Virus record (IMG/VR): IMGVR_UViG_3300002835_000026
Reading direction: 5' to 3' (one strand)
DNA: 64,000 nt
Source of the DNA: a virus
Part shown: positions 39,287 through 62,484 of the stretch, piece after piece
How positions within the stretch are numbered: position 1 is the first letter of the stretch
Layout of the letters: every line of letters begins with the position of its first letter
Notes under the pieces: generated by a model
The model's database searches: none
Told to the model about the DNA's origin: nothing
What the model saw: the letters and a program-made list of their open reading frames with translations, nothing else
Program-made: the position numbers and the translations under genes

Positions 39287-39307
39287 GTTATATTTTTCTG
39301 ATAAATA

Positions 39308-39838: not shown

Positions 39839-39890
39839 ATATTATAATGTATGTAAAGTCTCTAATGAGACCAAGTTGTAATTAATTTGT

Positions 39891-40142: not shown

Positions 40143-40147
40143 ATAAT

Positions 40148-40179
40148 TAAATATAACATCAAATTAGTAGGAGGCCAAA
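40148..40179 (-). promoter_or_regulatory. Bipartite promoter TTTGG-N19-TATATTTA
   Basis: Conserved motif and spacing. Confidence 0.6.
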
Positions 40180-40180
40180 C

Positions 40181-41196: not shown

Positions 41197-41197
41197 A

Positions 41198-42514: not shown

Positions 42515-42519
42515 ATATT

Positions 42520-42551
42520 TTAATATAATTAATTTTTAACTAAAGGCCAAA
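42520..42551 (-). promoter_or_regulatory. Bipartite promoter TTTGG-N19-TATATTAA
   Basis: Conserved motif and spacing upstream of the oxidoreductase. Confidence 0.55.
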
Positions 42552-42556
42552 CTAAG

Positions 42557-42628
42557 GTGGCCCACCTTTTTTAGGGTGGGCCACAGCTCCATAATGTTTT
42601 ATAAAATCGACAGGCTATGAATCTGTCT
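42557..42628. other. GC-rich structured intergenic element (two hairpins)
   Basis: GTGGCCCACC/GGTGGGCCAC 10-bp stem (42557-42584) and GACAG/CTGTC stem (~42609-42627). Confidence 0.55.
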
Positions 42629-42640
42629 GTATGTTATTTA

Positions 42641-43246: not shown

Positions 43247-43248
43247 TA

Positions 43249-43488
43249 TTATTTAATTTTATTAAGTAATTCTTTATGATACATGTTAACAGCAGTTTCT
43301 AAATTTTTAAGATCAGCATCATCAGCTGTGTTATCTCTTTCAAATTCACGCAATTTGTTTAAATACTGCTTAATAACATTTTTTTGTCCTATGTTTATAG
43401 GACTATCATTTCCGGACATTTCCTCATTTATTTTAATTCCCGCAATTTTTTGCATTTTTATAAATTGCTCATTTAATGGCTCTTTCAT
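43249..43488 (-). CDS. Small hypothetical protein with N-terminal KMQKIAGI motif
   Basis: MKEPLNEQFIKMQKIAGIKINEE. Confidence 0.75.
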   Translation of the reverse strand: MKEPLNEQFIKMQKIAGIKINEEMSGNDSPINIGQKNVIKQYLNKLREFERDNTADDADLKNLETAVNMYHKELLNKIK

Positions 43489-43512
43489 TTTTTATATATT
43501 TTTAATTTTAAA

Positions 43513-44625: not shown

Positions 44626-44882
44626 GACTTATATATTTTTAATCTTAATGTACCTGTACCTTTTATAGCGCGGTGCCATTCATGTCTTGGTATAAATATT
44701 GGTTGGTTTATAGAAGTCGGCAATTGATTTTCAAGTTGTAATTGCCAATCTGTTTTACCCATTACTTCAACTGTTCTGTCTTCATCATCACGATGCCACA
44801 TTAGTTCAATTGGATCTATATTTTCGTTAAATTCACGAATAATATATTCATCTGTAACTTCTATATCAGTGTATGGTCTCAT
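44622..44882 (-). CDS. Small cupin-like protein
   Basis: WHRDDEDR...IFIPRHEWHRAIKG. Confidence 0.65.
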   Translation of the reverse strand: MRPYTDIEVTDEYIIREFNENIDPIELMWHRDDEDRTVEVMGKTDWQLQLENQLPTSINQPIFIPRHEWHRAIKGTGTLRLKIYKS

Positions 44883-44886
44883 TTAA

Positions 44887-45417
44887 TTATATATTTTTAT
44901 TTATTAGTATATATAATTTATATTCATCATCTCCCCAACTGCCACCTAAAGATTCAACTTTAGTCACATATGGTAATTGTTTCATCATTTTTTCAGCTAA
45001 ACTTTGATATATTCTATCTCGTTTACTATTTCTACTTGTTTCTTCATCTGCCTCATTAGCAGGATGGCATTCTAATGTAAATTCACCATAGCCTTTAAAG
45101 TCAATTTCAATAAATTTTTTTAGAATATCAACAACAGTATTTAATACTGCTATACCGTCTCCTGATTCAGTTTGAGCCCATGGATTTCCTTTATTTAAAC
45201 CAAAACTAACATCTAATATTAAATCATCATTAGTTATATCTTCAGGTTTAGCTTTAGAATTCACTAAAGATATCCAGTAATCTTCATATGAATTATTTAT
45301 AGAAACAAAAATATTGTTTCCTTTTTTATTTATAAAATTATAACGTACACCATCACTTGTTTTTTTAGGACCTGTGAATGAGTAACTTTCTGTTAATAAA
45401 TCAATGAGTTTGATCAT
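44887..45417 (-). CDS. Hypothetical protein (176 aa)
   Basis: Leader MIKLIDLLTES; in operon. Confidence 0.7.
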   Translation of the reverse strand: MIKLIDLLTESYSFTGPKKTSDGVRYNFINKKGNNIFVSINNSYEDYWISLVNSKAKPEDITNDDLILDVSFGLNKGNPWAQTESGDGIAVLNTVVDILKKFIEIDFKGYGEFTLECHPANEADEETSRNSKRDRIYQSLAEKMMKQLPYVTKVESLGGSWGDDEYKLYILINKNI

Positions 45418-46037
45418 TTTCTTTTAGTATCAATCATATCGTAATAAAATGAATCTCCATCTTCAGTTACCCATCTATCAGATTGGTTTTCTACTGATGG
45501 TAATTCAGTGTCTACTTTAAATTGTTTTAAATCTTCAGGTAATTTTTTAGTTACCCAATTTGAATCTTTCCAAAATAATCTATTATTTGGTTGACACATT
45601 AAATATCCATCATCTGCTTTAAATATATGTCCACATTTATAATCTGATGGTTCATCACTATATGGATTATCATACCAATCTACAGTAAACATATAAGTTC
45701 CCCAAACTTTACTTCCGTCTCTTAAAACAATTTGAGCTCTATGATATGATAAAAAATCATATTCTACAACTGATACATTAACTGAAAAACAATCCCATAA
45801 TTGTTTAAAATTAAATGGAATGTCGTTTTCTGGAATTTTAGTATAGATTTCAGATATTGGAACCCTATTTCTAACCATACCATCATCAGTCATAACATGA
45901 AATGTTAATATTTTTCCGGAACATGATTGTAGTCCAAAAACATAAACATTTAAAAATACTTCTGAATCTTTTTTATTTTTAGTGAAATATGATTTACGAA
46001 CTAAAGCTTTAAAACTTGGAATATCCGCGTTTAACAT
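45414..46037 (-). CDS. Phage hypothetical protein (207 aa)
   Basis: QLWDCFS, G.YMFTVDW, KCGH, QPNNR motifs. Confidence 0.75.
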   Translation of the reverse strand: MLNADIPSFKALVRKSYFTKNKKDSEVFLNVYVFGLQSCSGKILTFHVMTDDGMVRNRVPISEIYTKIPENDIPFNFKQLWDCFSVNVSVVEYDFLSYHRAQIVLRDGSKVWGTYMFTVDWYDNPYSDEPSDYKCGHIFKADDGYLMCQPNNRLFWKDSNWVTKKLPEDLKQFKVDTELPSVENQSDRWVTEDGDSFYYDMIDTKRK

Positions 46038-46038
46038 A

Positions 46039-46356
46039 TTATTTTTCTCTAATTAACAATTCGCCTAATACTTCTAAACGACCAACTTCACGTTGGAATT
46101 CATTTTGAGTCATATCTAATGATATTTTTTTATAGGTTTCATCGAATTCTTTTTTAGCTGCTTCTTTATCAAATTTACCTTTTATAGCTTTTTTATAATA
46201 AGATGGTTTCACATTAAAGTGAGTATATGTTAATAAAGCATCGCCGCCTTTTTCTTTAGCATTAGCTATAATTTTTTCAGCACCTGCTAAACGATTTTTA
46301 GCAAATGTTTCAAAACTTTCTTTAGCTTCAGTTAATAATTGAATAAGATTAATCAT
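46039..46356 (-). CDS. Hypothetical protein (105 aa)
   Basis: Leader MINLIQLLTEA. Confidence 0.7.
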   Translation of the reverse strand: MINLIQLLTEAKESFETFAKNRLAGAEKIIANAKEKGGDALLTYTHFNVKPSYYKKAIKGKFDKEAAKKEFDETYKKISLDMTQNEFQREVGRLEVLGELLIREK

Positions 46357-46796
46357 TTTTTTATTTTTTTAAATGGAGCATATCCTGAACCATATGGAGC
46401 TGATTTGCCAGATTGAGGATCTGGAGTTTCTGATATAGTCCAAGTTTTAGCATCATGTGCTTTTTCTTTCAATTTAAATGTAACAACACCACGAATTGAT
46501 TTAATATCTTTTTCTACTTTAGTTACAATATTAGTATTGTCATTTAATCCTTTAGGGAATGGTGATGGATCAATTTTAATATCTAAATAAGCATATTCAT
46601 ATTGTGATGATGGATTACCTGACTGATATTCTCTGTTATTAACAATAGTTACACCTAATACAGCTCTAACATCAGATAAAATGTATTTCATTTTAGCAAC
46701 TTTAGGGTTGATAACAATAACACCACCAATGGCTAATACCTTTTTTGATGAAGCATATTCTTCTTTAATTGCTTTTTTAATTTCTGATAGTTTCAT
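46353..46796 (-). CDS. Hypothetical protein; start likely at MKLSEIKKAIKEE (46796)
   Basis: Leader helix; ferredoxin-like 'ILSDVRAVLGVTIV...IKSIRGV' pattern. Confidence 0.65.
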   Translation of the reverse strand: MKLSEIKKAIKEEYASSKKVLAIGGVIVINPKVAKMKYILSDVRAVLGVTIVNNREYQSGNPSSQYEYAYLDIKIDPSPFPKGLNDNTNIVTKVEKDIKSIRGVVTFKLKEKAHDAKTWTISETPDPQSGKSAPYGSGYAPFKKIKK

Positions 46797-46807
46797 AATT
46801 GTAAGTA

Positions 46808-47455
46808 TTACCAAAAACCGGTAAAAGTAGTTTTAAATCCTAATAAGTTTGCGTAACGAGGTAATCTACATGACCAGTAACGTGCTGTTGTTTTATCTTT
46901 AGCTTGTGGACAATTCATTCTATCTGAAAATGCTTTACGTGCTTTAGGATTGTTTAGTTTTGCTCTTAAAGCTCCACCAGCCATACCAAATGATATTTTT
47001 TTAACTTTATCACCGTCTTTAACATAAACATAGAATTTTTTAGATCCACCACGTTTTGGTTTACCTAATGCTACTTCTTTACCTTGGTATTTAGCTTCAG
47101 TTATTATTTCCATTAATGGTAAATCTAAAGGAACAAATTCGCCTTCATATTTTGCCCACCTGCCAATATCAGTACGTTCAAATATTTTTTTATCTGTACC
47201 TTGTAATTCAATAATACCTTTAGACCATAACATTCTCGCTTCAGTCAATAATTTTTGATGAGCGAAACTGCCTGGGCGATATATATTCTCGGTAAGCTGT
47301 ATTTTACTGTCTATATGGTAACGCATCGCCTCAGATATCGCCATATTGTACTGCTTAGACTCTACGAGTAAAGGCGGTGTATCGCAGTGTTTGCATGAAT
47401 CGGTTACTTTGTAATTTTGCAAAGTTTCTGAGATAAGTTGTTTTAATTTATTCAT
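46808..47455 (-). CDS. Two-domain hypothetical protein with basic Cys-containing C-terminal domain
   Basis: ITE|AKYQGKEV..GKPKRGGSKKFYVYV..KISFG..ARKAFSDRMNC..RYWSC. Confidence 0.75.
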   Translation of the reverse strand: MNKLKQLISETLQNYKVTDSCKHCDTPPLLVESKQYNMAISEAMRYHIDSKIQLTENIYRPGSFAHQKLLTEARMLWSKGIIELQGTDKKIFERTDIGRWAKYEGEFVPLDLPLMEIITEAKYQGKEVALGKPKRGGSKKFYVYVKDGDKVKKISFGMAGGALRAKLNNPKARKAFSDRMNCPQAKDKTTARYWSCRLPRYANLLGFKTTFTGFW

Positions 47456-47458
47456 GAT

Positions 47459-47467
47459 TATAAATAT
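47459..47467 (-). promoter_or_regulatory. Putative late promoter motif ATATTTATA
   Basis: Immediately upstream of the ATG at 47455. Confidence 0.45.
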
Positions 47468-48492
47468 TAAATTGCTTTAGCAGTTGAAAATTGCTTTTTA
47501 GGATAAAATCCAAATCTTGCGTTTTTAATGTCTTGTTGACTCATATTATTTCTAAAAGTGACAGCCATATGTGGTATATATTCTCCAGTTAATTGTTGTG
47601 GATATATAAAATAAGCAGGACTAGTTATTTCAAAATACTCACCTTTATCAATTAATGTTATATTTCCAAAGCATATTAATTCTACTTTATCAATTCCAAA
47701 ATCTTCACCTAAACCGTAAGATGCTTTTAATTTTAAATCATCAGATTTAATATCTCTTTTATAACTGTCTTTATTTTTTAGTTCTCCACCTGATGTTTGC
47801 TTAACAGCATCTATAAAGCTTTTAACCTCATCATTATTACTTAATTTACTCATTCCTGATAATTGTTGAGATTGAATATCTTTATGTTGGATATATAGAT
47901 TTTCATCACCCTTAAATATAAAATCAGCTTGTTTATTACCTGGTATTTTTTCTACTGTAGTAATATTTTTGTATACTTTTTCTCCTACTTTTATATTAAT
48001 ACTTCCACCTTTTTCTTCAATAGCTTTATTTAAATTACTTAATTGATAATCTTCAATATCAGCACCAATAGCTTCCATACCTAATACTAAAATTATATCT
48101 TTTCCTTCAATAGGAAATTGGAATGCAAAATTTCTGCTACTAGGATTTTGGTTATTAGGATTACCTAATTTTGTTGGAGGAAGAATTTTAATATCTTTAG
48201 GATCTATATCAAATATATTAGATATAATATCTATAAATTCATTATTAGTAATATTCCCTATATTTTTTATACGTTTAGGTCTACTATGAGGACCTAATTT
48301 TCCTTTAGCTTCATCTGATGATAAAATAGTTCTTATAACTTGGGGTGTTGTTATTTTATCTTCTTTTAAACTAATACCTAAATTATTTAGTAATGATTCC
48401 ATTAATAAAATATCCTGTTCATTTTTCATGTCAGGATATCCTTTAGGAAATTTATAAGAATATTGTTTTAAAAACTTATCTAATGGATCCAT
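47467..48492 (-). CDS. Hypothetical protein with possible PD-(D/E)xK-like nuclease domain
   Basis: E....L...I...KQADFIF......IQHK..QQLSG resembles a restriction-endonuclease-fold catalytic motif. Confidence 0.55.
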   Translation of the reverse strand: MDPLDKFLKQYSYKFPKGYPDMKNEQDILLMESLLNNLGISLKEDKITTPQVIRTILSSDEAKGKLGPHSRPKRIKNIGNITNNEFIDIISNIFDIDPKDIKILPPTKLGNPNNQNPSSRNFAFQFPIEGKDIILVLGMEAIGADIEDYQLSNLNKAIEEKGGSINIKVGEKVYKNITTVEKIPGNKQADFIFKGDENLYIQHKDIQSQQLSGMSKLSNNDEVKSFIDAVKQTSGGELKNKDSYKRDIKSDDLKLKASYGLGEDFGIDKVELICFGNITLIDKGEYFEITSPAYFIYPQQLTGEYIPHMAVTFRNNMSQQDIKNARFGFYPKKQFSTAKAI

Positions 48493-48782
48493 TATTTTAC
48501 TTCAATTTGCTTCAAATTTGAAAATATTTGAGTTAATAAATTGTCGTCATTTGTTTTAATCATAGCAATCATAGTATCAGCCAATATTTTATTAGCCGCT
48601 ACATTCAAAGGTTTATTACTTTTTACTAAATTAATAGTAGTAGTAAATTTAGAAGGATCAAAACCTTCAACACCTAATTTTTTAAATAAATCTGTTTTGA
48701 TTTGACCTTGAAGTTTTGGTTCTTCAGTAGTGACTTCTAAAATTTGTTCTCTTATTAATTTTTTAAGTTCTGATTTTTTCAT
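48492..48782 (-). CDS. Hypothetical protein (96 aa)
   Basis: Leader MKKSELKKLIREQILE. Confidence 0.7.
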   Translation of the reverse strand: MKKSELKKLIREQILEVTTEEPKLQGQIKTDLFKKLGVEGFDPSKFTTTINLVKSNKPLNVAANKILADTMIAMIKTNDDNLLTQIFSNLKQIEVK

Positions 48783-48793
48783 AATATTAGTAA

Positions 48794-49282
48794 TTAAATT
48801 GTTAAATCAGCAGCTGGAGTTGATTCTTCAGCTGGACCTGGTTCTGTAGCTGCTTCATCACCTGAATCTTTAAATGATGAATTCGCATCTTTTGAAGCTC
48901 CATATGATAATAATCTAGCTATAGATTCTGTTGCCCGCCCTTCGTCTTTTATATCATTTAGCCAATATTTTTTACCTTCTGATTTACAAATCCATGTAAC
49001 ATCATCATATAGTAAGTAAAAGAATTGATTGTTAGCTAATAATATTTTAAATGTTGTTGGTTTAGGTGCTATCCATTGTATTTCACTAACAAAATCTTTA
49101 TATTGAGTTGTTAGTAATTGAATGATAGAATCACGTAATGTAGGGAATTTAGCTAAAATAGGAAACTTATCCAAATCTAAAGAAATATCTGTTTTAGGAA
49201 CATCTAAATCTATTTTAGATTGGGCTTTGTAAACTTGTTTTACAATAGCACGTATTCTATTTTTAAAGTCTTCTTTTACCAT
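48794..49282 (-). CDS. Hypothetical protein (162 aa)
   Basis: In operon; WIAPKPTTFKI.L.N motif. Confidence 0.7.
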   Translation of the reverse strand: MVKEDFKNRIRAIVKQVYKAQSKIDLDVPKTDISLDLDKFPILAKFPTLRDSIIQLLTTQYKDFVSEIQWIAPKPTTFKILLANNQFFYLLYDDVTWICKSEGKKYWLNDIKDEGRATESIARLLSYGASKDANSSFKDSGDEAATEPGPAEESTPAADLTI

Positions 49283-50682
49283 TAGTTTTTATTTTCTTTA
49301 TTCCAGTCTGATAAACTCATCATGCCTACTTCAGTATCATAATCATCATAATAATTATTTTTTACTCGTTGACCTATTTTTTGAGCTTCAGCTTTTGAAT
49401 TTAAAGTATGTCTTAATTTTTTACCGGTTTTATCTACATTAATCCATACTACCCACTTTTCACCTTCTGCTGCTTCTTCTTTAACCATTGGTTTTTTAAG
49501 TTTAGCCATTATTTTTTCAGATAATGTTGAGTTTGTTAAAGATTTAACTTCATCCATGTTCTGTGCATTTACAGCGTTAAAAACTTCTTGACCATATTTT
49601 GACACTACTTCTTTCTCAGACTTTCCAGCATCAATCATTTTTTTAGCCGCAGCAATATCCTGTTTAAATTGTGTTGGTTTAGATGATTTAACTCTATATT
49701 TTTCTTGTGCAGGAGTAACTTCATTCATTGGTTCATCCATTGCTGGAATAATATCTTCGTAATCCTGCATTGACAATGTTTCTTTACTTTTATTGATTTC
49801 AATAGCTTTTTCAGCCACATCATGTAAATCCATATCCGCTTTAGCGTCTTCACGAGCAAATTCTAACATACGAATAAATAAAGGTACATCCATAGTAACT
49901 GTATCTACTGCATCTTTAGCTTCTGCTTCTTCTTCGTTAACTTCTTCTTTAACTAAACCACCTTTAAGGATAGTCATAATAGATGAGTAAGCATCATCAA
50001 TACTATAATCATAGTATTTAGCTACACCTTTAACAAATTGTTCTACTTTTTTTCTTAATTCAGGATTAATACTACCTCCAGTAACAAACATTTGAGCTTT
50101 TTCTTCTTGAATCATAGCATCTAAAGCTGGTTGTTTATCTTCAAATTCTAAATAATGTTTAGCTTTATCCATATAATCAGCAGCTAGATGGATTTTTTCT
50201 TGCCACCAATCAGGGAAATCAACTTCTTGATCCATTTGATCATATTTATCTAGCATTTTATATAAACTAGCGGCATATTTAGCTATACGATAAACAGATG
50301 CTTTTAACATATCTGGTTCATCATCTTGATGGCCTAAATCAATATCTTCTTTTGTAGCTTTTTTAATGATTGATTTTTGCAATTCATCAGGTAATGATTT
50401 TTGACCACCTTTTAAAGCAGGATCAGTATCAAACTCTTTTGAAAATTTTTCATCTACAGGACTCATAAGAGTCTTTTTAATCATTTCACGTACTTTATCT
50501 TTATTCATGTTTTCTGCTGTTTTTTTAGCTATATTAGTAGCACGTCCATACATCACTTTTTCAGCATCTTTACCATAGCGTTTAACTAATGATGATTTTG
50601 CGGTTTTAAGTTGCTTAATAACTTCCTCACGTTTTTTTAATTCATTAGGAGTTAATGTTTTTTCAGTGATACTTTGTTTCAT
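49282..50682 (-). CDS. Mosaic hypothetical protein (466 aa)
   Basis: Short segments (VMYGRAT; GHQDDEPDM..FPDWWQEKI; TMDVPLFIRMLEFARED) separated by x-x-E sites. Confidence 0.75.
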   Translation of the reverse strand: MKQSITEKTLTPNELKKREEVIKQLKTAKSSLVKRYGKDAEKVMYGRATNIAKKTAENMNKDKVREMIKKTLMSPVDEKFSKEFDTDPALKGGQKSLPDELQKSIIKKATKEDIDLGHQDDEPDMLKASVYRIAKYAASLYKMLDKYDQMDQEVDFPDWWQEKIHLAADYMDKAKHYLEFEDKQPALDAMIQEEKAQMFVTGGSINPELRKKVEQFVKGVAKYYDYSIDDAYSSIMTILKGGLVKEEVNEEEAEAKDAVDTVTMDVPLFIRMLEFAREDAKADMDLHDVAEKAIEINKSKETLSMQDYEDIIPAMDEPMNEVTPAQEKYRVKSSKPTQFKQDIAAAKKMIDAGKSEKEVVSKYGQEVFNAVNAQNMDEVKSLTNSTLSEKIMAKLKKPMVKEEAAEGEKWVVWINVDKTGKKLRHTLNSKAEAQKIGQRVKNNYYDDYDTEVGMMSLSDWNKENKN

Positions 50683-52805
50683 TATCTTAAAATTCTTTTT
50701 AACATTGGAAACATATTTTCATTAATTTGATTTAATTTACCTTTAGCTTTTTTAGCTTCAGCCATATCAGGATAACTATCATCATAAACATCCATGCTGT
50801 CATCATAATTATCATCATTATCATCACCTGGATTATCTCCAGCATCATATTGATTTAAGAAGTCTTCCAATTTCATTCCTGGATTTTTCTGTATTGCTGT
50901 AAACATATCATTTATTATGTCTTCATTGTCCATATTTGATAAAATATCATATATAGCATCAGCACTATCATCATTTATAGCTTCATTAATTGGAGCTGTA
51001 TCTAAGATATGAGCTTTAGTAAAATAAGTAATTGTATTAGCAATTTGAGTAATTAATTTTTCATCACCTAATGCTTTTGCTTCAGCATATGCTGCTTGTA
51101 AGTTAGATTGAATACCTGATACTTCAGTTGTTTTACCAGCCATCATATCTGATTCAGGAGCATCAACTACTTCAGTATCGTCTACTGTTATGTCTTCAAC
51201 TTCTTTATCTTTTTTAGCTTCACTAAGACTGTCATTAGCTAACTTACCCATGTCCACTAAATTTTCTAATTCTTCACGTTCATCATTATTAAGATCTGTG
51301 CCATCTTTAAATTTAGCAACAGAAATATAAACGTCAGAATAATCATTATAAGATCCACCTTCTACTTCAATTGAATTAACATCAACTTCTTTTCCGTTTA
51401 ACATTACTTTGTTTGATTCTGCTTCTTTTAAGGTAGTACCATCAGAAATTCCTTTAATACTTGAATGTAACATTGCTAAGAAATATTTCATTTCTATTAT
51501 TCTATCTTCCATCTCTCTATCTGTGAATTGACCAAACATGACAAGATTTTTAACTATATCTAAATTCCTAAAAGCAGTTTCTATAGCAGTAACAGTTTTT
51601 CTTTCAACATCTTTAGGCTTAGTAAAGTCCCAATTATCTCCAATAGTAGATATAGCTTCATCTAAAGGATTTTGCAACATATCTTCTAATTTTTCTGCTT
51701 CTTCTTCTGATAAACCAGGATAAGAGTTCATTAATTCTTCAGCATCATATTCACGCATCTCATCTATAAAAAGATCACCTTTATTTTTAAAATATTTAAA
51801 TAAAAACTCAGCATCATAGTTGTTGTCTTCTAATTCTACTTCTTCTGCTTCAGCTAATGGATCATACATGTTATTTAAAGCACCTGGTTCATCAATATCT
51901 TCTGTAGAATCTTCATTTAATTCAGCTAAAATCATTTCTTTGATTTTTGATTTTAGTTTAGATTTAGTCATCTTTTCTTTTTCGATTTCTTCACCTTTTT
52001 TAACTCCAGCACCATATATATTTTCTTCACCTTTTTTACCTAAACGTTTAGCTGATTTAGCTCTATCATAATCAGTATCACCTTCGCTCATTTGTGTATT
52101 ATTTAATTTAGATAAATCGTTTGGATCAATAACAACTATTAAATTATCAATTTCTTGACCATATCCTATTGGACTATCACCTACTTCATTTTTTACTCCA
52201 ATAGAAGTTAAATAATTACTCATTTCATCTGCTAATTTATCTACTGTATTATTTAAAAATGATTTTTCTTTATCTTTTAAATAATCTCTATCACCAAAAT
52301 CCATAGAATTTTCTATTTCTTTAAAATTATCACTGTTAGTAACAACTAAATAAAGTTCATTATCTACTTTATAGTATTCAACATTTTTAAATTTACCAAA
52401 ACTTACTTTTGAATCTTTGTAAGCACCTTCACCTTCATTCATATCATCTAAGAAAAAGTCTTGACCTGGGAATAAAGTAGCTAAATCAGTTAATTTTAAA
52501 TTAACTTGATAAATAGATGGAGCCATTTCTTGGTATACTTCTGAATTATATTTGTCTGCTATAGTTTGGATCATAATGTCATCATTTGATGCAATCATGA
52601 CTTTGTTTTTTGCTGGGTATACCCAGATGTCTAGTGTTTCATCAGCATTTTTATTTGGAGGTACCATGTGGTAGATATTATCATCTCCCATGATTCTTTT
52701 CCATGATGAAAAATTTAACATGTTAGTATTAGATCCTTGATTTTCTTTAATAATACCCGCAAGTTTTTGCATGCGAGCTAATTGTTCATTTAATGTTGGT
52801 TTCAT
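50682..52805 (-). CDS. Acidic mosaic protein (707 aa) with N-terminal RMQKLAGI motif
   Basis: MKPTLNEQLARMQKLAGIIKEN; many [LIM]-x-E sites. Confidence 0.8.
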   Translation of the reverse strand: MKPTLNEQLARMQKLAGIIKENQGSNTNMLNFSSWKRIMGDDNIYHMVPPNKNADETLDIWVYPAKNKVMIASNDDIMIQTIADKYNSEVYQEMAPSIYQVNLKLTDLATLFPGQDFFLDDMNEGEGAYKDSKVSFGKFKNVEYYKVDNELYLVVTNSDNFKEIENSMDFGDRDYLKDKEKSFLNNTVDKLADEMSNYLTSIGVKNEVGDSPIGYGQEIDNLIVVIDPNDLSKLNNTQMSEGDTDYDRAKSAKRLGKKGEENIYGAGVKKGEEIEKEKMTKSKLKSKIKEMILAELNEDSTEDIDEPGALNNMYDPLAEAEEVELEDNNYDAEFLFKYFKNKGDLFIDEMREYDAEELMNSYPGLSEEEAEKLEDMLQNPLDEAISTIGDNWDFTKPKDVERKTVTAIETAFRNLDIVKNLVMFGQFTDREMEDRIIEMKYFLAMLHSSIKGISDGTTLKEAESNKVMLNGKEVDVNSIEVEGGSYNDYSDVYISVAKFKDGTDLNNDEREELENLVDMGKLANDSLSEAKKDKEVEDITVDDTEVVDAPESDMMAGKTTEVSGIQSNLQAAYAEAKALGDEKLITQIANTITYFTKAHILDTAPINEAINDDSADAIYDILSNMDNEDIINDMFTAIQKNPGMKLEDFLNQYDAGDNPGDDNDDNYDDSMDVYDDSYPDMAEAKKAKGKLNQINENMFPMLKRILR

Positions 52806-52824
52806 GTTTTATATAGTTATATAT

Positions 52825-52833
52825 TATAAATAT
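52825..52833 (-). promoter_or_regulatory. Putative late promoter motif ATATTTATA
   Basis: Upstream of the ATG at 52805. Confidence 0.55.
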
Positions 52834-52836
52834 GTG

Positions 52837-53109
52837 TTATTTGTTAAACTTAACTTTTGCTTTTTCTGTATTGGATACAAATTGTTTACCTTTTTTACTA
52901 CCCTCAACTTTTTTGCGTGTTGTTGCGGCACGTTCTGCTTTAGTTAAGCGTTTTGCTTTAGCTAATGGTAAGCAACGTTGTGTTGCTTTACCTTTAGGCA
53001 TTGTACCACAGTCACCTGCGATGTTACCTTGAGTATCTATACGGACCCATTTTTCTTTTTTAAACCAGTCACGTAGTGATTCTTGTACTAGACGTTTTAA
53101 ATTGTCCAT
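52837..53109 (-). CDS. Small basic protein (DUF5872-like)
   Basis: SLRDWFKKEKWV...CG......RCLP.AKA..L...ER..T.RKK....GKQFV.N. Confidence 0.65.
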   Translation of the reverse strand: MDNLKRLVQESLRDWFKKEKWVRIDTQGNIAGDCGTMPKGKATQRCLPLAKAKRLTKAERAATTRKKVEGSKKGKQFVSNTEKAKVKFNK

Positions 53110-53459
53110 TATTTTTTCTTGCCTGACATTAATCCTTTACATACCTTAACAGCTCGACCTGATAAATAAGCTGAAGATTTTTCGCCAGATGCAAGTCTAC
53201 GTTGACGATATGCTTCGCCTTTAGGGCAAAGTTTTTCAGTTAATAATTCATTTAATATATTATCAATGCGTTCTTTTAATCTAGGTGTATTAAATATTTT
53301 ATTAATAATAACAAAATCAGTTATTGGATCTAATTCATCCACTGTTTTACCATTAGCATAAAGTTTTAAAAAATATTTTACTGTAGGTGTATTGTAAGTA
53401 TCAATTTTGTCTTTGATAATTTCTAATTTTTCCTTAGCTACTTGTTGAATTGCATCCAT
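53109..53459 (-). CDS. Hypothetical protein with basic C-terminal peptide
   Basis: LLTE|KLCPKG...SSAYLSGRAVKVCKG. Confidence 0.7.
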   Translation of the reverse strand: MDAIQQVAKEKLEIIKDKIDTYNTPTVKYFLKLYANGKTVDELDPITDFVIINKIFNTPRLKERIDNILNELLTEKLCPKGEAYRQRRLASGEKSSAYLSGRAVKVCKGLMSGKKK

Positions 53460-53460
53460 A

Positions 53461-53664
53461 TTATTTACTTAATAGATCATTAATTTTGTAGTGAAATTGT
53501 GACATACTAGTGTCTAGTAAATCAGGATTATCCTTTAATATTTTATATAGTTTTTCACTAACATCAAATTTAATTACAGGATTTAATATATCTTCTTCCA
53601 TCATCTCATTATTTTCAACTAAACGACGATTGTTAAAATATTTATATGTGTTAAATGTACCCAT
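53461..53664 (-). CDS. Small hypothetical protein (67 aa)
   Basis: Fills the operon gap with a TAATG overlap. Confidence 0.6.
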   Translation of the reverse strand: MGTFNTYKYFNNRRLVENNEMMEEDILNPVIKFDVSEKLYKILKDNPDLLDTSMSQFHYKINDLLSK

Positions 53665-54269
53665 TATTTTTTAGTTTTTAAGTAATTACTTAGTAGTGTA
53701 CCTATAGCACCTATCTTCTGTCTTATAAATATCCATTCTTCTAGCGTTAATGTATGATTTTCATTAACATAATCAATAACTAACACACCTATAAACTGAT
53801 CATGCAAATCATGTATAGCAAGAGCATAAAATGATTTAGTTCCACATGTTTTGTCTACAGGGAATAAATTTTGAGCTTTATCAGCATCATAATGAGGTAA
53901 TGTAATTTCACCTTCTCTATATAATGTAGAAAATGCTTTACTAAATAATGATGTAGGAATATTTTGGTATACTTCTTTAACAGATGCTACATCAATGCTT
54001 ACTTTTTCATATAATATTGAAAATTTTTGTAATGATTTACCTGTAGGATATAAATGCCCACCATTATGGAATTGTGATATCCATACACGGTCACAATTTA
54101 ATTGGTCAAATAAATTATCAACTTGATGGTCGATTAATGCATTATGTTCAATAGCTTCAGCTAATGGATCTTGCTTTTTTCTTTCTAATTTAGTTTTAAC
54201 CCAAGTCATTGCTATTGGTCCTATTACTGCTGTTATAAATGCAACTATCACTGCCGTTATTATATCCAT
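53664..54269 (-). CDS. N-terminal TM plus GAF-like domain protein (holin T-like architecture)
   Basis: IITAVIVAFITAVIGP TM; CDRVWISQFHNG...FSILYE...KSFYALAI..L..QFIGVLVIDY. Confidence 0.6.
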   Translation of the reverse strand: MDIITAVIVAFITAVIGPIAMTWVKTKLERKKQDPLAEAIEHNALIDHQVDNLFDQLNCDRVWISQFHNGGHLYPTGKSLQKFSILYEKVSIDVASVKEVYQNIPTSLFSKAFSTLYREGEITLPHYDADKAQNLFPVDKTCGTKSFYALAIHDLHDQFIGVLVIDYVNENHTLTLEEWIFIRQKIGAIGTLLSNYLKTKK

Positions 54270-54838
54270 TACTTTTTTAAACTTTGTAGGTATTCTATTG
54301 TTTGTTCTTTATTCTTTAATAATTGTGCTTTGTCTGAACCGTTCCATGATTCTACATCTCCTGCCTCTGTAATATAAGATTCCATTTTGGTATCTATTTT
54401 TTCATCAATCCAAATATTAAAATCTTTAATTATACTATCAATATCAGAATTTAATATATTTTTTTCATATTCAACCCATAATCCTTTTGCTTTTATTGTA
54501 CCTTCAAATTCTATTTGGCAATTAAAACATCTGTTATATTGAATATAAAACTGTTTATCATAACGGTGTTTCATTACTTTAGAGCATTCAGGGCAAAACA
54601 AGGGTAAATGGATTTGAGCTTTTGCTTTATCCAATTTTGTAACATTTTGTTTTATACCATTTTTAATAGTCCATTTACGACTATCTTCTTCCCATACATC
54701 TCCTTCATTATGAAACTCTTGTTGTTTGGTAAAACCAATACTAGTACTAGTTTTTTCACCATATTTACCTTGAACTAAATTACGAAGACGTTGTACATCT
54801 TTTTCTTTAAATTCTTTTTTTAAAACTGATTCTGACAT
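54269..54838 (-). CDS. Zinc-ribbon hypothetical protein
   Basis: CPEC...CFNC. Confidence 0.75.
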   Translation of the reverse strand: MSESVLKKEFKEKDVQRLRNLVQGKYGEKTSTSIGFTKQQEFHNEGDVWEEDSRKWTIKNGIKQNVTKLDKAKAQIHLPLFCPECSKVMKHRYDKQFYIQYNRCFNCQIEFEGTIKAKGLWVEYEKNILNSDIDSIIKDFNIWIDEKIDTKMESYITEAGDVESWNGSDKAQLLKNKEQTIEYLQSLKK

Positions 54839-54841
54839 TTA

Positions 54842-55483
54842 TTACTTTATTAGATTTTTTATTTGTTCTCTAATGACTTCTTGTAATTCTTTTTTAGTCA
54901 TTTTAACTTTCATATACTCAGCTTTAGGATCTTTAGGTAATTCTTTAATTTTACCTGCTTTAAACTGTTGCATAAAATATAATTTTGCTTCTTGATCTAA
55001 TTTATCTGCTGATTCATCAACTGCTTCTTTATCTACTATTGAATAATTAATTTTAGCATTTTTCATTACTACATCAATAATTTTTTTAGTTAAGTCTTTA
55101 GCTGGATTTCCTGATTTAGGGAAAACAATAGTATCATCTTTAACTTTATATTTTAATAATGTAGGTTTAGAAGTATGTGATTTAACAAAATCATCAATTG
55201 ATGTTTTAGTTTTAACAGGAAAAGGAAAACCTTGATCTCTTTCCATTTTCTTGCGTTTAGCAGGAATAACAGGACCAAAGTGATCTTCTATAGCTTTTTG
55301 TATAGATGATTTATTACGCATGTTAGAAACATACATTCCATAGTTATCTAATGTTTCTAAAGCCTTAACTGTATCTTCTACAGAAACACTATTAGGAGTA
55401 ACTACAATATCGTAATTTACTTGTTCACGATTTGAAGGTGTAGTTTCTGCTTCTTCTTCTCTTAATTTATATTTGTAAGCCAT
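54842..55483 (-). CDS. Hypothetical protein (213 aa)
   Basis: MAYKYKLREE leader; C-terminal MTKKELQEVIREQIKNLIK. Confidence 0.7.
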   Translation of the reverse strand: MAYKYKLREEEAETTPSNREQVNYDIVVTPNSVSVEDTVKALETLDNYGMYVSNMRNKSSIQKAIEDHFGPVIPAKRKKMERDQGFPFPVKTKTSIDDFVKSHTSKPTLLKYKVKDDTIVFPKSGNPAKDLTKKIIDVVMKNAKINYSIVDKEAVDESADKLDQEAKLYFMQQFKAGKIKELPKDPKAEYMKVKMTKKELQEVIREQIKNLIK

Positions 55484-55484
55484 A

Positions 55485-55880
55485 TTATTGCTTTAATTTT
55501 TGAATTAATTCTTTAGCTTTAGCTTTTTTCTCATCAATATCTTTTTTAGATGTTCTAAATTCATCCATTGATGATTTTAACTCATCAATTTGCATATCAC
55601 GTTCTTTTAAAACCATAGTAGCTGTTCTGCCAGCATCTGATTTGTTTTTATACATACCCATGATATTTTCATATGTTAAGCCATTTTTAATTTTTTCAGC
55701 TAATGAAAAAAGATCAGCTTCAAACATTATTTCTTCTTTTGTAGATTTAGTACCTGGTTTAGATACAACAAAGAATTTACCTACTTCATCAACTACATCA
55801 TAGTTTTTAGTGATAATTTCTTTTGTTTCCATTGTTTCTTCTTCTAAATTTTCTCTTAAAAGGTCAATTAATTTTTTCAT
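55485..55880 (-). CDS. Hypothetical protein (131 aa)
   Basis: Leader MKKLIDLLRENLEE. Confidence 0.7.
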   Translation of the reverse strand: MKKLIDLLRENLEEETMETKEIITKNYDVVDEVGKFFVVSKPGTKSTKEEIMFEADLFSLAEKIKNGLTYENIMGMYKNKSDAGRTATMVLKERDMQIDELKSSMDEFRTSKKDIDEKKAKAKELIQKLKQ

Positions 55881-55899: not shown

Positions 55900-58800
55900 T
55901 TATTTATTTTTAATACTGTCTTCCCAATTTCTAAACATCATATTACCTTTTTTGTAAGCTTCTCTTTCAATTTCAGGTAAATCTCCGTCTTCATTTGTAT
56001 TTGTTGTACCTATATTATTTAATCTATTATCTAAATTTTGTTCATGATGTATCATTTCATGTGAAAATGAACGTAAAACATCTTTAGGATGTCTATTCAT
56101 AGTAAATAAAGTAATTGATTTTTCTTCTGGGCTGTAAAATGCTGTTTTGCCAAATACATTTTCAGCATTTGCTTTATCATTGTTAATAAATTTAACAACA
56201 GGTAATGGCTTAATATTCATTCCTTGATTAACCATATATTTAGTTAATTCAGGAATATATTTTTTATAGTCATTATTTTCTTTACCTTCTTTTAATTTTC
56301 CTTGTCCACCTGCTTTTAATAACGGACTATCTTTAGGTAATTTTGTATTAATATAATCAATAGTATTTTGAATTGTTTTATATAAATCTTTTTGAAATTC
56401 TTTATATCCTTCTGGATTATATTTTCTTATTTGTTCTATATTTGAGTGAAAATTAGTTAATGTACTTCTTGAATCCCACCCTGGATTTGTATTTATTCCT
56501 AAAAACCATCCTCCCCAATCTGCTATTTTTCTTATAAATTTTTGAATATCATTACCTTTTTCTCCTTTAGATAACCAATCCATTGTACTTTTATTAAACA
56601 TTTTATTTTTACCAGAATAAAAATCTAAAATATCTTGATAATAAGAGTTTAACTCAAGTACAGCTTGTTTTAAATTATCTTTATTATTATTTATATATTC
56701 ATAACTATTAAATTTTATAGCTTCTAAAAATTCACCTGTTTGTGATGGAAATTCTTCCCAAGTACCATAATATAATTCTGGTTTTGAAGGGTCATATTTA
56801 GTTTTTAATGGCTTGTGATTTACAGCTGGATCTTTTGCATGAATTAATTCATGACGTAAAGAAGATAAAAGAGCTTCTTTAGGATTATCTCCAGTTAATG
56901 TTTTCCAAATAGATTCTAATGTTCCTTCAAAAGCAGGAAACCAATAATTTCCATTAATTCCTATAAAATTATCTTTAAAATTAGTATTATCTTGTGTTAA
57001 AAACTTAGCTGCTGATCGGGTGTCACCATCATCATAAATGTATGGTACAAATTCTGCTTCTTCTCCTGAAGCCATTTTGTATTTGATAGGATTAGTTAAT
57101 CCTACTTTAAAGTCTTTTTCTTTTAAAGCTTGTATAAAAATAGGAATTAAATTTCTTAATTTTGTTTCTTCTTCATCACTTAATGATATAATACCTTCTT
57201 TTAAATCTTCTACTTTATTAACAGCTAAGATATAATTTTTTATGTTATCAATTCCACCTTCAGGACCTTTAAAAGATATTCTTTCTTCTTGTTCATCATA
57301 ATCACCAGTATTATTAAAGAAATCTCTCACTACACTTTCAGGTTCATCTTCTAACCAATTATATTCCCAATTGTCTTCATAGTTCCATCCCGGTCTGTAG
57401 GCAAAAGGTGTTATTTTATATTTGTCAGATAATTTGTCTCCATCTAATGTAATTCTATAATCTGTTTTTACTCCAAAATTAGATCCTTTTTTATAGAAAT
57501 TTTTATTACGAGTAAATGAAATATAATATAATTCATTACCTAAATAATTTTCTTCAGAGGTATTTATTTTATTAGACTGAAGGATGCCTTTTAATCCATC
57601 GGCTGATGTGTAGTGATATAAAGGACCAACTTGCTTACCTTCTTCTAATCCACCAGGTGTATCTAATTTTTTACCTGTTTTAACATCTGTATCATAATCA
57701 CAAGTTCCTTCATTTAAATCAGGATTATTATCATGTCCACATATACTACCATCTGGTAATTTGTTATGGCAAATATATAAATCCTTACCACCATCAGCTA
57801 ATTTCCAGGTCCAGCCACAGTTATCACAAATAACTTCTGTAGCTGTTACTAGTTCTTGAATGACAGTAGATAAAGTATTAAATATTTCTGTTTTTTCTTT
57901 TACTTTTTCAGGAATAAAAGATAAAAATGCTTCTTGTCCTTTTTTTAATGCTTGACGAGCATCAGTTCCACTTGTATCTGATTGAGTAATTATAGGAGCT
58001 AATTCAACATTTTCATATTTACCTATACCTTTAGTTTTTGATGCTAAGTCTACAAAATCATCATCTTTACCATCTCTAGCTCCAATAACCCATATTACAT
58101 CTTCATCTTGATGATTTTCAATATACTCATATATAGCTGTAATTGGTGATTTAGCTGGTTCTACTTTTACTTTTAAAGGTAAGTATTTTTTATATATATC
58201 CCAAGTTAAAAGTGATTCAGCTTGAGTAATTCCATCTCTTGTTCCAGAACCAACATAAATAATAAATTCATCTATTTGAGGAAATTGCTCTAATGCTTTT
58301 TCAACAACTTCAAAATGACCTTTGTGAGGTGGTTTAAAACCACCACCATAAAGTGCTACTGTTTTCTTTGAATCTGCTTCAATTAAAGGTAAGATTAATT
58401 CTCTAACTAATCCTTTAAATAATTTATTTTCTAATAAACTACTAACTGCGTCTAATGCTGCTTGTTTATTATCACCTTTAGGTGTATCAACTTCTCCACT
58501 TTTAATAGACACCATTGATTTAAATATACCTTTTATTCTATTTTTAGAACGTTCGTTTTTTAATTTAGATTTTAAATCTTGTAATAATGTTTTAAAATCA
58601 CCATCTATATTGTAGTTGTCAAATAATTTTTTAACAATACTCCAATTTGAAGATTTCCAAACCTCAGTTCTATTAAGTTCTTTAAAATTATCTAATGTTA
58701 CTATACGTAATGTTAATCCAGCACTTGATAAATTAAATTCATATTCTTGATTCGCTTCAAGTTCAGGTACATTAGTAATACCTAATCTAGTGAATATTTT

Positions 58801-59283
58801 TTTAGGATCTTCTTCTAAACAAATTACTTTAGCTAAACCTAAAAGTAAACCTTGTACTTCAGCTGGATAATCTAAGAATGTATTTTTAAATGTTGATTCT
58901 TCTTCACTAGTAGAAATAATATTATCTATTTGAACAAATTCATCAGACATACCAACTATAGGGTATAATACAGTTACTAATTCACCACTACTAAGTGATT
59001 TTTTTCCTTTATATTTATTACTTTTAAAAGGTACAATAACTGAATCAGGGAGAGAAGCAAAATATTTAGCTAAATCTTGTTTAGCTAATTTTTTATCATT
59101 ACTATCTAAATGAACAATTAAATCAATGTCACCAAAGTCTTGTTTAGTTCCTGTATTATAAGAACCAGTTGCTTTAGCGTCCTTAAATCCAGGGAATTTA
59201 GATAATACTTTATTTATATAATCTTGAACAGTTTTTTCTACTGCTGCCCTAGATATTCTATTTCCACCTGCTGAACCTGACAT
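55900..59283 (-). CDS. Multidomain protein: Pol-beta nucleotidyltransferase + HIGH cytidylyltransferase-like + Cys/His knuckle + ART-like + two HExxH domains
   Basis: TGSY...DFGDIDL; LYGGGFKPPHKGH...SGTDAR; CDNC..C.H..C; LYHYTS...ISFTR...EQEER; LRHELIH; SHEMIHHEQ...EREAY. Confidence 0.8.
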   Translation of the reverse strand: MSGSAGGNRISRAAVEKTVQDYINKVLSKFPGFKDAKATGSYNTGTKQDFGDIDLIVHLDSNDKKLAKQDLAKYFASLPDSVIVPFKSNKYKGKKSLSSGELVTVLYPIVGMSDEFVQIDNIISTSEEESTFKNTFLDYPAEVQGLLLGLAKVICLEEDPKKIFTRLGITNVPELEANQEYEFNLSSAGLTLRIVTLDNFKELNRTEVWKSSNWSIVKKLFDNYNIDGDFKTLLQDLKSKLKNERSKNRIKGIFKSMVSIKSGEVDTPKGDNKQAALDAVSSLLENKLFKGLVRELILPLIEADSKKTVALYGGGFKPPHKGHFEVVEKALEQFPQIDEFIIYVGSGTRDGITQAESLLTWDIYKKYLPLKVKVEPAKSPITAIYEYIENHQDEDVIWVIGARDGKDDDFVDLASKTKGIGKYENVELAPIITQSDTSGTDARQALKKGQEAFLSFIPEKVKEKTEIFNTLSTVIQELVTATEVICDNCGWTWKLADGGKDLYICHNKLPDGSICGHDNNPDLNEGTCDYDTDVKTGKKLDTPGGLEEGKQVGPLYHYTSADGLKGILQSNKINTSEENYLGNELYYISFTRNKNFYKKGSNFGVKTDYRITLDGDKLSDKYKITPFAYRPGWNYEDNWEYNWLEDEPESVVRDFFNNTGDYDEQEERISFKGPEGGIDNIKNYILAVNKVEDLKEGIISLSDEEETKLRNLIPIFIQALKEKDFKVGLTNPIKYKMASGEEAEFVPYIYDDGDTRSAAKFLTQDNTNFKDNFIGINGNYWFPAFEGTLESIWKTLTGDNPKEALLSSLRHELIHAKDPAVNHKPLKTKYDPSKPELYYGTWEEFPSQTGEFLEAIKFNSYEYINNNKDNLKQAVLELNSYYQDILDFYSGKNKMFNKSTMDWLSKGEKGNDIQKFIRKIADWGGWFLGINTNPGWDSRSTLTNFHSNIEQIRKYNPEGYKEFQKDLYKTIQNTIDYINTKLPKDSPLLKAGGQGKLKEGKENNDYKKYIPELTKYMVNQGMNIKPLPVVKFINNDKANAENVFGKTAFYSPEEKSITLFTMNRHPKDVLRSFSHEMIHHEQNLDNRLNNIGTTNTNEDGDLPEIEREAYKKGNMMFRNWEDSIKNK

Positions 59284-60245
59284 TATGCTGCTTTATATTT
59301 ATTTAAATTAGAATCATCAGGTAAAAATTTACCTTTAAGACCTAAGCGACTTTGATTAGTAATCCAATATTCTTGAAGATCTAATGGAATATCAGCTCTA
59401 GTTGAGTCTAATATTCTTAAATATATATCTAATACTTGATTTAATTTATCTTTAGGTAGTTTTTTCTTTAAAACATCCATTAACTCAAAATAATCATTTA
59501 ATACATCTTGAGATAAATTAAGTTTAAATCCTTGGTTTAATACATCTAATGCTTCTTGAGGATTAGTCGCTACTATATCTCCTGTTTCTTTATCCTTAAC
59601 ACCAGTACCATGACTAAAAGTTTTATTTAATGCTTGGAACATAGCTACCATTAATTGGGTTCTATGTAAACCTTTTACATTATCTTTATAGGTATTTGAA
59701 TAGTAACTAAAATTTAGCCAATCTAAATTACCTACATTAATATCTATTTGTACTGATTTATCATTAAGTATTTCTCCTTTTTCATTGTATTGAGGAAAAT
59801 TACAAAATATTGAGCCATTACCTGCTGCTTTTAAATCAGTGTCTATATATTCTGATTTCTTTTCAAGATTAGTAGCTATTAATTCTAACATAGCTCTTAA
59901 TTTGCTTTGAGTTTCTGATGCTGAACGTGAACGTTTTCTAATTTTTTCATATAGAGTGTCAAATTCAGCTTTATCAATATTCCAATTAGATAATAATGGA
60001 TTACCATCTTTATCCATAAATTGGTCAACACTCATACCTAAATCAATATCACCAGATTCATCTTTTTTACCAACTGAACCTAAAGTATTAAAGTTAAATT
60101 TTACTTTTGGGTATACTTTATTTAATTCAGCAGTGAAATTTTTAAGAGTGGGTTGGATGTATTCTTTTTTGATACTAGAGGTGGTGCCAAATACGTTGCC
60201 ACCTTCTAAAGTTATTGATTTTAAAAGCTCAATTAAAGAAATCAT
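59283..60245 (-). CDS. Pol-beta-superfamily nucleotidyltransferase
   Basis: LEGGNVF...LGSVGKKDESGDIDL...VQIDI...VKGLHR. Confidence 0.75.
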   Translation of the reverse strand: MISLIELLKSITLEGGNVFGTTSSIKKEYIQPTLKNFTAELNKVYPKVKFNFNTLGSVGKKDESGDIDLGMSVDQFMDKDGNPLLSNWNIDKAEFDTLYEKIRKRSRSASETQSKLRAMLELIATNLEKKSEYIDTDLKAAGNGSIFCNFPQYNEKGEILNDKSVQIDINVGNLDWLNFSYYSNTYKDNVKGLHRTQLMVAMFQALNKTFSHGTGVKDKETGDIVATNPQEALDVLNQGFKLNLSQDVLNDYFELMDVLKKKLPKDKLNQVLDIYLRILDSTRADIPLDLQEYWITNQSRLGLKGKFLPDDSNLNKYKAA

Positions 60246-62025: not shown

Positions 62026-62484
62026 CTATAGTGTAAAGTCCTTAGTAAAGAACTTACCTAATATATTATCATTATAGAATGATTCTGGGTGTTCTAATAC
62101 TTTATATGTAAATAAGGCTTGTGTTTCGTAGTAAGTTAGTAATTTTTTATTAGGTGCTAATTTAATTATAGTGCGAGTGAACAAATCTTGTTTACCGTCT
62201 TTAATTAATTGCATTACTTCTTTATTAGAGCCGTAATATGTTTCCCAATCTGATTCTTTGGTTATTATTTTAGTAGTTGGTTTACGGCCAACACCAGTTA
62301 ATTCGGCTACTTCTTTTTTACCTAATTTTACTTTTTTATTATGGTATAATACTTTTTTACCTATATAAGATTTATTAGTATCAGTATTTTTAACTATATA
62401 AATAAATCCAAATGTATCTTTAGGAAAATCGTTGAGGTTAGTGATGGGTTTACTATTGTAAACCCAAGTTGGTAATGTTAACAT
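62026..62484 (-). CDS. GIY-YIG-family nuclease
   Basis: GFIYIVKN......YIGKK, YYGS, F.R.II, E, YNDNI. Confidence 0.75.
   Translation of the reverse strand: MLTLPTWVYNSKPITNLNDFPKDTFGFIYIVKNTDTNKSYIGKKVLYHNKKVKLGKKEVAELTGVGRKPTTKIITKESDWETYYGSNKEVMQLIKDGKQDLFTRTIIKLAPNKKLLTYYETQALFTYKVLEHPESFYNDNILGKFFTKDFTL

Follow-up and report, generated by a model that had tools for sequence, protein, structure and literature searches.

The open reading frame (ORF) at positions 55900..59283 of the IMG/VR virus record IMGVR_UViG_3300002835_000026, analyzed here as a stretch of 64,000 nucleotides (the window), is in our preferred reading, held with modest confidence, the gene of a head-packaged polyprotein of enzymes that would be cut by the prohead protease of the same phage. 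Packaging, cutting, and injection had been proposed by an earlier inspection of the letters alone (the sequence-only reading). This claim gains comparative support from L-x-E-G motifs at the cassette borders, leaders resembling the capsid-targeting sequence (CTS) of phage T4 on stand-alone homologs, a Peptidase_S77 protease in the window, and enrichment of the site motif in head proteins; it is weakened by the lack of a leader on the protein itself, the position of the gene beside primase and exonuclease genes, and a raw number of LxE motifs that is not raised.

The window is a genome segment of an uncultured T4-like phage, has 27-30% G+C, and carries almost every gene on the minus strand, where this ORF and all window features given below with coordinates are also located unless noted otherwise. 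The ORF is open and intact, encodes a protein of 1127 aa (P0001), and contains every motif previously listed, where it had been placed: G-S at residues 40-41 with D-x-D at 52-54 (~59130-59166), GGFKPPHKGH at 314-323 (58315-58344), a Cys knuckle at 486-515 (57737-57828), the ADP-ribosyltransferase (ART) motifs LYHYT with His557 (~57615), SFT, and DEQEE (~57294), HELIH at 811-815 (~56853), and HEMIH at 1075-1079 (~56061). From the N-terminus, the predicted modules are a PolX-like nucleotidyltransferase (residues 1-285; 58429..59283), a HIGH adenylyltransferase that ends in IQE (residues 303-477, fold 306-476; 57853..58377), a Cys4 zinc ribbon that ends in LNE (residues 478-525; 57709..57852), a 24-residue spacer (residues 526-549; 57637..57708), an ART-fold cassette (residues 550-697; 57193..57636) and a zincin-like HELIH cassette (residues 698-1000; 56284..57192) that both end in LKEG, and a small zincin-like HEMIH domain (residues 1001-1127; 55903..56283).

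The proposed mechanism comprises the following steps: (i) a capsid-cargo polyprotein would combine a conserved core of PolX-like and NMNAT/PPAT-like enzymes, to which a zinc ribbon and a small zincin-like domain are added in most cases, and in this strain two optional cassettes, a Tpt1/DarT-like ART and a larger zincin-like one, are inserted in frame ahead of the small zincin-like domain, (ii) its short disordered linkers carry h-x-E (h, hydrophobic; mostly L-x-E/G here, the slash marking the putative cut), which is the site type of gp21-family (Peptidase_S77) proteases, (iii) the precursor would be assembled into the prohead core, (iv) the S77 protease would cleave after the linker Glu and release separate enzymes inside the head, and (v) the freed enzymes would be ejected with the DNA into the host, where their targets in takeover or counter-defence may be nucleic acids, NAD-type nucleotides, and host proteins. 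The 12-nt joints that code for L-x-E-G probably act, in addition, as microhomologies for gain, loss, and exchange of cassettes.

Putative cleavage sites and in-frame cassettes

The listed [LI]xE motifs in P0001 lie at residues 283, 300, 475, 523, 546, 694, 720, and 997, and each of the four L-x-E-G motifs of the protein (523, 546, 694, and 997) falls exactly on a cassette border. In the AlphaFold2 model of residues 1-530 (mean predicted local distance difference test score, pLDDT, of 84), pLDDT falls below 50 only at residues 286-304, 475-480, and 524-530, and each of these stretches carries [LI]xE. Four of the eight [LI]xE sites within residues 1-530 are found in these linkers, which make up ~7.5% of the residues (binomial p = 0.0018). 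The linker between the PolX-like and HIGH modules (residues 283-302; 58378..58437) is predicted to be disordered and is flanked by two h-x-E sites, LLE/NKLFKGLVRELILPLIE/A. Each of the 29 sequences in alignment A2 has an h-x-E in this linker, as do 36 of 36 parsed shorter homologs, while the linker is otherwise variable; the internal peptide 286-302 resembles a leader of the capsid-targeting pattern.

More than 1000 metagenomic proteins match P0001; among cultured phages, the sole match to the full-length protein is found in Flavobacterium phage vB_FspM_immuto, where gp088 (908 aa, annotated as a nicotinamide mononucleotide (NMN) adenylyltransferase) is 44-58% identical to P0001 over the shared parts. 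A BLAST map of 121 homologs revealed a conserved core of PolX-like and HIGH modules, in most cases joined by the zinc ribbon and HEMIH, around which inserts vary and orders are shuffled. Homologs of 475-617 aa presumably lack the zinc ribbon, HEMIH, or both, and the zinc ribbon module also occurs alone in many viral contigs.

The same modularity is observed between close strains. Three syntenic metagenomic contigs (L081, L082, and L083), which are 92-99% identical in DNA to the window at 49-64 kb, carry alleles of 647, 953, and 794 aa, respectively, that differ from P0001 only by in-frame absence of cassettes. The missing parts are residues 526-1000 in L081, residues ~526-692 in L082 (the ART cassette is absent from both), and the spacer plus the HELIH cassette in L083. 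The spacer, G526 from the end of LNEG followed by TCDYDTDVKTGKKLDTPGGLEEG, lies between LNE/G and LEE/G; P0016 and L002 have it together with the ART cassette, and P0005 and L083 lack it. Neighboring blocks of the DNA alignment share 11-13 nt at the joints of L083, and the stretch common to the joints is only ~12 nt long, TTAAAAGAAGGT. Since the cassettes are polymorphic and in frame at these joints, the locus is a strain-level hypervariable cassette site. The gene just downstream also differs, encoding 176 aa in L083, the more distant strain variant (L083:2393-2923), vs 131 aa in the window (55485..55880); thus, the variable region reaches beyond the polyprotein gene.

Leaders of stand-alone cassette homologs

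Residues 550-1000 were scanned against 1.84 billion cluster representatives, and both cassettes were found as stand-alone proteins, of 150-190 aa for the ART-like and 300-340 aa for the HELIH family. The ART-like proteins start with leaders such as MKTFKQFISE/AKQVG and MKPYKQFIAE/AKQVG (pattern M-K-x-F-K-x-F-I-x-E/[AG], ~10 residues), and the HELIH proteins begin with MIKLIDILKE/GIISLT. These leaders end in [LI]-x-E immediately before the residue where the cassette begins in P0001. Among cluster representatives at ≤50% identity, the ART domain starts after h-x-E-x in 81 of 83 cases (54/56 N-terminal and 27/27 internal), and the P2 residue varies, so that h-x-E is conserved at the amino acid level.

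The modal ART leader has 11 residues including the one that follows Glu; its positions 4, 7, and 8 are hydrophobic, and position 10 is Glu. In the 10-residue CTS of T4 IPIII, positions 4 and 7 govern targeting, and positions 8 and 10 govern processing (PMC9026906). Relatives in which the HIGH module is N-terminal begin with MxxLVKSLIxPFLxE, and P0001 keeps the equivalent internally, in the PolX/HIGH linker. A scaffold-tail tag was observed on the homologs P0125 and P0254. Gene neighborhoods of two stand-alone homologs were uninformative.

Amphipathic leaders ending in [LI]xE were also observed on many small ORFs within 38240..55880, for example, MIKLIDLLTE at 44887, MINLIQLLTE at 46039, MKKLIDLLRE at 55485, MNKLKQLISE at 46808, and RMQKLAGIIxE at 42641 and 50682. 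This pattern suggests that the leader-bearing ORFs of the window form a large set of capsid-targeted proteins.

Head-maturation machinery

The proposed processing enzyme is a prohead protease of the T4 gp21 family encoded at 30200..30805 (Pfam Peptidase_S77, E 2.6e-31; phrog_207, E 4.8e-56). It belongs to a T4-type head module that also includes a Gp23-family major capsid protein (Pfam E 7e-74), a portal protein, and a large terminase. Five long viral records contain a member of the polyprotein family, and each of them also encodes Peptidase_S77. The motif [LIVM]xEG occurs 3.9 times per 1000 aa in the head-morphogenesis cluster vs 0.74 elsewhere in the window, a five-fold difference (Fisher p = 5.7e-4).

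The major capsid protein (26670..28346) has a 77-residue N-terminal extension before its Pfam Gp23 domain. The extension holds LLES, LLEG, LLEN, and LVxE, which are conserved in 73 non-redundant relatives and are candidate propeptide cut sites. The conserved LLEG does not count as independent evidence, because the whole N-terminus of this protein is conserved.

Weighing of the alternatives

We infer the packaging, cleavage, and injection of P0001, as well as the substrates of its modules, and several observations weigh against these assignments. The protease-type sites reported earlier at the junctions hold by their placement at the borders and by the exactness of L-x-E-G, but not by their number: the [LI]xE total in P0001 (14) equals the expectation from composition (13.9 +/- 3.4 in 2000 shuffles), and across 122 fetched family proteins [LIVMF]xEG was observed 124 times vs 143 expected. 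Plain LxE enrichment was therefore discarded as evidence. The own N-terminus of P0001 (MSGSAGGNRISRAAVEK; MSGSAGGNRI, strongly conserved) is devoid of a ~10-residue leader with hydrophobic residues at 4, 7, and 8 and Glu at 10. The gene follows directly after the primase, exonuclease, and 320-aa ORF genes, outside the head module, and the conserved PolX-like and NMNAT-like pair would also suit a cytoplasmic role in repair or nucleotide metabolism. Some clades fuse the zinc ribbon to HEMIH without any h-x-E, and the 12-nt repeats at the joints could be mere traces of recombination that play no part in proteolysis. Both HExxH segments are called zincin-like by their signature, and a search for a virion proteome of the source phage or phage immuto found none.

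Alternatively, P0001 would be an unprocessed cytoplasmic multi-enzyme of DNA repair or nucleotide metabolism during replication, either acting as a single polypeptide or never packaged, with L-x-E-G joints that serve only as microhomologies for cassette recombination and derive from donor genes. Such a protein would agree with the folds of the first two modules, the absent leader, the unremarkable LxE count, the 12 nt shared by the joints with the 11-13 nt overlaps of the aligned blocks, and the gene order primase, PD-(D/E)XK exonuclease, hypothetical ORF, polyprotein gene, which is common to the window and phage immuto. We nevertheless consider it unlikely. All 27 internal copies of the ART domain retain the preceding h-x-E despite a varied P2 residue, and thus this motif is not a relic at the DNA level; the PolX/HIGH linker conserves h-x-E while the rest of it varies; and stand-alone homologs of both cassettes bear removable leaders of the T4 CTS pattern.

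A self-processing polyvalent protein, whose linkers would be cleaved by one of its zincin-like domains or by both, either before injection or after it, with no part for the prohead protease, appears improbable. This possibility follows the polyvalent-protein model of Iyer et al. (2017) (PMC5512222), and it draws on HEMIH, which most family members contain and whose HExxH…E signature is intact, and on weak matches to the MPTase-PolyVal, Peptidase_M91, and Tox-MPTase families. The linker motif, however, is an S77-type site that is enriched in head proteins, and stand-alone ART-like proteins, which lack a metallopeptidase, have leaders with the same motif at their end. In addition, forms of 475-517 aa consisting of PolX and HIGH appear too short for a zincin, and homologs of the N-terminal set keep the linker sites. 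Packaging and injection of the whole chain, as with the N4 virion RNA polymerase, is very improbable, for although unprocessed polyvalent proteins provide precedents (PMC5512222) and the linkers are predicted to be disordered, merely flexible linkers would leave the precise h-x-E/[GAS] at module starts unexplained.

Beyond the preferred reading of a packaged and cleaved polyprotein, we tentatively propose a wider picture, in which aquatic T4-like phages keep in-frame, interchangeable injected effectors bounded by protease sites. The DNA coding for a site would double as a recombination joint, and co-circulating strains would therefore swap their arsenal cassette by cassette; the conserved and injected PolX-like and NMNAT-like pair would have the incoming genome or NAD-type nucleotides as its target at the very start of infection.

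Predicted activities of the N-terminal modules

The model of residues 1-530 was searched with VIA-align 2 (VIA), which is independent of Foldseek, and with Foldseek. The PolX-like module shows a palm and thumb fold at residues 3-234 (pLDDT ~90). The best VIA matches are DNA polymerase (pol) beta 3k75 (Z 11.5, 182 aligned), TdT 6go3 (Z 11.4), and pol lambda 7m0e (Z 11.1), and Foldseek also returned pol lambda (E 2.7e-7); other transferases of the pol-beta fold align over only ~105 residues with Z 8-9. Residues 3-234 contain the features by which family X is recognized, namely, a palm with G-S and three carboxylates plus a thumb, and alignment A2, with 29 diverse homologs, shows no variation at G40-S41, D52, D54, and D120. 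The fingers and 8-kDa dRP-lyase domains of family X are absent, since the palm begins at residue 1 of the model. PolX of African swine fever virus (ASFV) likewise lacks both, and its structure 5hr9 matches the module with VIA Z 10.1 over 163 of 176 target residues. The model thus points to a domain with a complete catalytic set that resembles the minimal ASFV PolX, and the Pol-beta nucleotidyltransferase named in the sequence-only reading is refined to a palm plus thumb similar to family X polymerases.

The HIGH module has the motifs GGFKPPHKGH and SGTDAR and a Pfam match to CTP_transf_like above the cut-off (E 1.1e-5). Both GxFxPxHxGH and SxTxxR, diagnostic of adenylyltransferases for NMN and nicotinic acid mononucleotide (NaMN), are present on a HIGH Rossmann fold. 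VIA matched the module to PPAT 4nah (Z 16.1), NaMNAT 3h05 (Z 15.0), 5llt (Z 14.5), and NMNAT 1f9a (Z 12.8), with a range of Z 12.7-15.0 for NaMN/NMN adenylyltransferases. Because PPAT scores highest, the module is not assigned to NMN over phosphopantetheine or another substrate. In the zinc ribbon (CDNC…C…C), C486, C489, C505, and C515 are invariant (alignment A1).

The ART cassette

The ART cassette (KQVGPLYHYT … SFTR … DEQEER) was modeled with pLDDT 81 and a predicted template modeling score of 0.74. VIA aligned the model to Tpt1 7yw2 (Z 9.1, root-mean-square deviation 2.6, 92 aligned), KptA 9ld3 (Z 8.7), Scabin (Z 7.7), and DarT (Z 7.5 and 7.4); ADP-ribosyltransferase-fold proteins and related toxins dominate the top 50, and Foldseek gave Tpt1 with probability 0.99. 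Pfam Tox-ART-HYD1 was matched below threshold in 11 of 46 family members, and the best PDB profile match is DarT. In alignment A3, conservation is 90% or higher for Y-H (of LYHYT), S-x-T-R, and E-x-E-E, which may hold the NAD-site His and the catalytic acidic residue of the superfamily. The earlier suggestion of an ART-like domain is thus borne out at the level of the predicted fold, which is of the Tpt1/DarT kind and not of the T4 Alt kind. Since the nearest structures are modifiers of nucleic acid ends or bases (Tpt1/KptA, DarT, and Scabin), the model makes DNA or RNA a more likely target than RNA polymerase, the target of T4 Alt.

Among cultured phages, the ART cassette matches only Dickeya jumbo phages, and weakly. 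In Dickeya phage JA11 (L164, 3992-4915), the hypothetical protein with 26.5% identity to the cassette is encoded next to an NAD-dependent DNA ligase gene. Several metagenomic proteins carry more than one ART-like module and are thus further module trains. P0167 (1200 aa) has five ART-like modules in tandem with x-E-G before each, and P0150 and P0164 have two recognizable ART-like starts each, preceded by h-x-E-[GA], with five stretches matched in a database search and a HEMIH-like HExxH.

The two HExxH segments

The HELIH cassette contains an invariant HExxHxxDP with Glu 29 residues downstream (alignment A6), and HEMIH has an invariant HExxH, Q, and ExE (alignment A7). Pfam matches of both segments, including MPTase-PolyVal, are all below cut-offs and comprise the effector-type zincins Peptidase_M91 and Tox-MPTase2/3. 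For the HELIH family they are Peptidase_M91 in 7 of 27 members and Tox-MPTase2 in 5 of 27; for the HEMIH family they are DUF6647 in 10 of 20, DUF6782 in 7, Peptidase_M91 in 7, and MPTase-PolyVal in 4. A PDB profile search with HELIH returned only helical de novo proteins and UvrC and was uninformative, and no match to this cassette was found among cultured phages. The ESM Atlas look-alikes of HELIH and HEMIH are unnamed viral clusters, with LPD23 and M78 matches that serve merely as leads. The multi-domain organization proposed earlier thus holds for the four folded segments, while the HExxH segments have zincin signatures.

Homology between HELIH and HEMIH was considered and rejected. Because hhalign aligned just 16 columns around HExxH, they are treated as separate zincin-like families. 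MAFFT alignments over residues 527-1127 stacked the unrelated ART, HELIH, and HEMIH families in every row set. A different HExxH combination was observed in a related viral-contig ORF of 1169 aa (L055:2992-6501, plus strand), where HIGH is joined to an M78-like HExxH, a plastocyanin-type copper-binding domain (E 7.8e-15), and DUF6267 (E 1.1e-99).

Comparison with known systems

Polyvalent proteins have been described as carriers of zincin-like metallopeptidase, ART, and pol-beta-superfamily nucleotidyltransferase hub domains, with pol-beta enzymes only in proteins of conjugative elements, and self-cutting by a built-in metallopeptidase was proposed for them (Iyer, Burroughs, Anand, de Souza, and Aravind 2017; PMC5512222). 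Such proteins are defined by at least two disparate activities per polypeptide of a phage or conjugative element, and P0001 combines PolX-like, HIGH nucleotidyltransferase, zinc ribbon, ART-fold, and two HExxH modules. As in polyvalent proteins, unrelated enzymatic domains are united in one chain and are predicted to be early injected effectors that are cut into functional units. Unlike them, P0001 has T4-type sites at which the S77 prohead protease is predicted to cut it, its core pair of PolX-like and NMNAT-like modules is absent from PMC5512222, and its gene lies away from the structural genes.

The internal proteins (IPI-III) and Alt of T4 (PMC9026906, PMC3012670) share with P0001 the Peptidase_S77 family of the protease and the site type, after Glu in L/I-x-E. 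Further similarities are the 10-residue leaders of CTS pattern on stand-alone cassette homologs and the hypervariable content between strains, as at the internal protein locus of T-even phages. T4 Alt is also a packaged ART, whereas the ART of P0001 is Tpt1/DarT-like. Each T4 cargo has its own gene and an N-terminal CTS; in P0001, several cargoes share one frame with internal sites and no CTS at the N-terminus. In the giant phages phiKZ, 201phi2-1, and SPN3US, many head-internal proteins, including ejection and inner-body proteins, are cut after Glu at short motifs by a distant gp21 homolog, and enzymes are delivered with the DNA; however, all identified cuts in SPN3US except self-cleavage of the protease remove N-terminal propeptides, and no enzyme polyprotein was described (PMC10052503). 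Replicase polyproteins of RNA viruses likewise hold several enzymes in one chain, which a virus-encoded protease sets free by cutting short motifs in the linkers, but their domains are unrelated to those of P0001, whose proposed protease is encoded in trans and is predicted to act inside the prohead of a DNA phage. We found no account of an enzyme polyprotein in which protease sites delimit interchangeable cassettes.

If confirmed, the preferred reading would mean that capsid cargo can be loaded as a protease-cut polyprotein, in contrast to the gene-by-gene loading of T4, and that its modules are exchanged between near-identical strains, which would be a compact means to diversify injected counter-defence tools. 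It would also add new candidates to the ejected enzymes, namely, a PolX-like transferase of minimal size, an adenylyltransferase of the NMNAT/PPAT kind, an ART similar to Tpt1/DarT, and two zincin families. More than 1000 relatives are present in metagenomes, and cultured phages have hardly any.

Other genes of the window

The upstream neighbor of the polyprotein gene (59283..60245, 320 aa) begins with MISLIE and contains LGSVGKKDESGDIDLG, a G-S…DxD pattern resembling a second pol-beta-type nucleotidyltransferase. It was considered as a paralog of the N-terminal nucleotidyltransferase or of DUF6267, and BLAST found no similarity to either. A SegE-like GIY-YIG homing endonuclease gene (62026..62484, Pfam E 8e-28) is located 3 kb upstream of the cassette locus, and the strain variants L081 and L082 carry this gene as well. 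Finally, a 3522-aa ORF at 12060..22628 lies within a region of 39-47% G+C, well above the remaining window, and its N-terminus is rich in G-x-S repeats.

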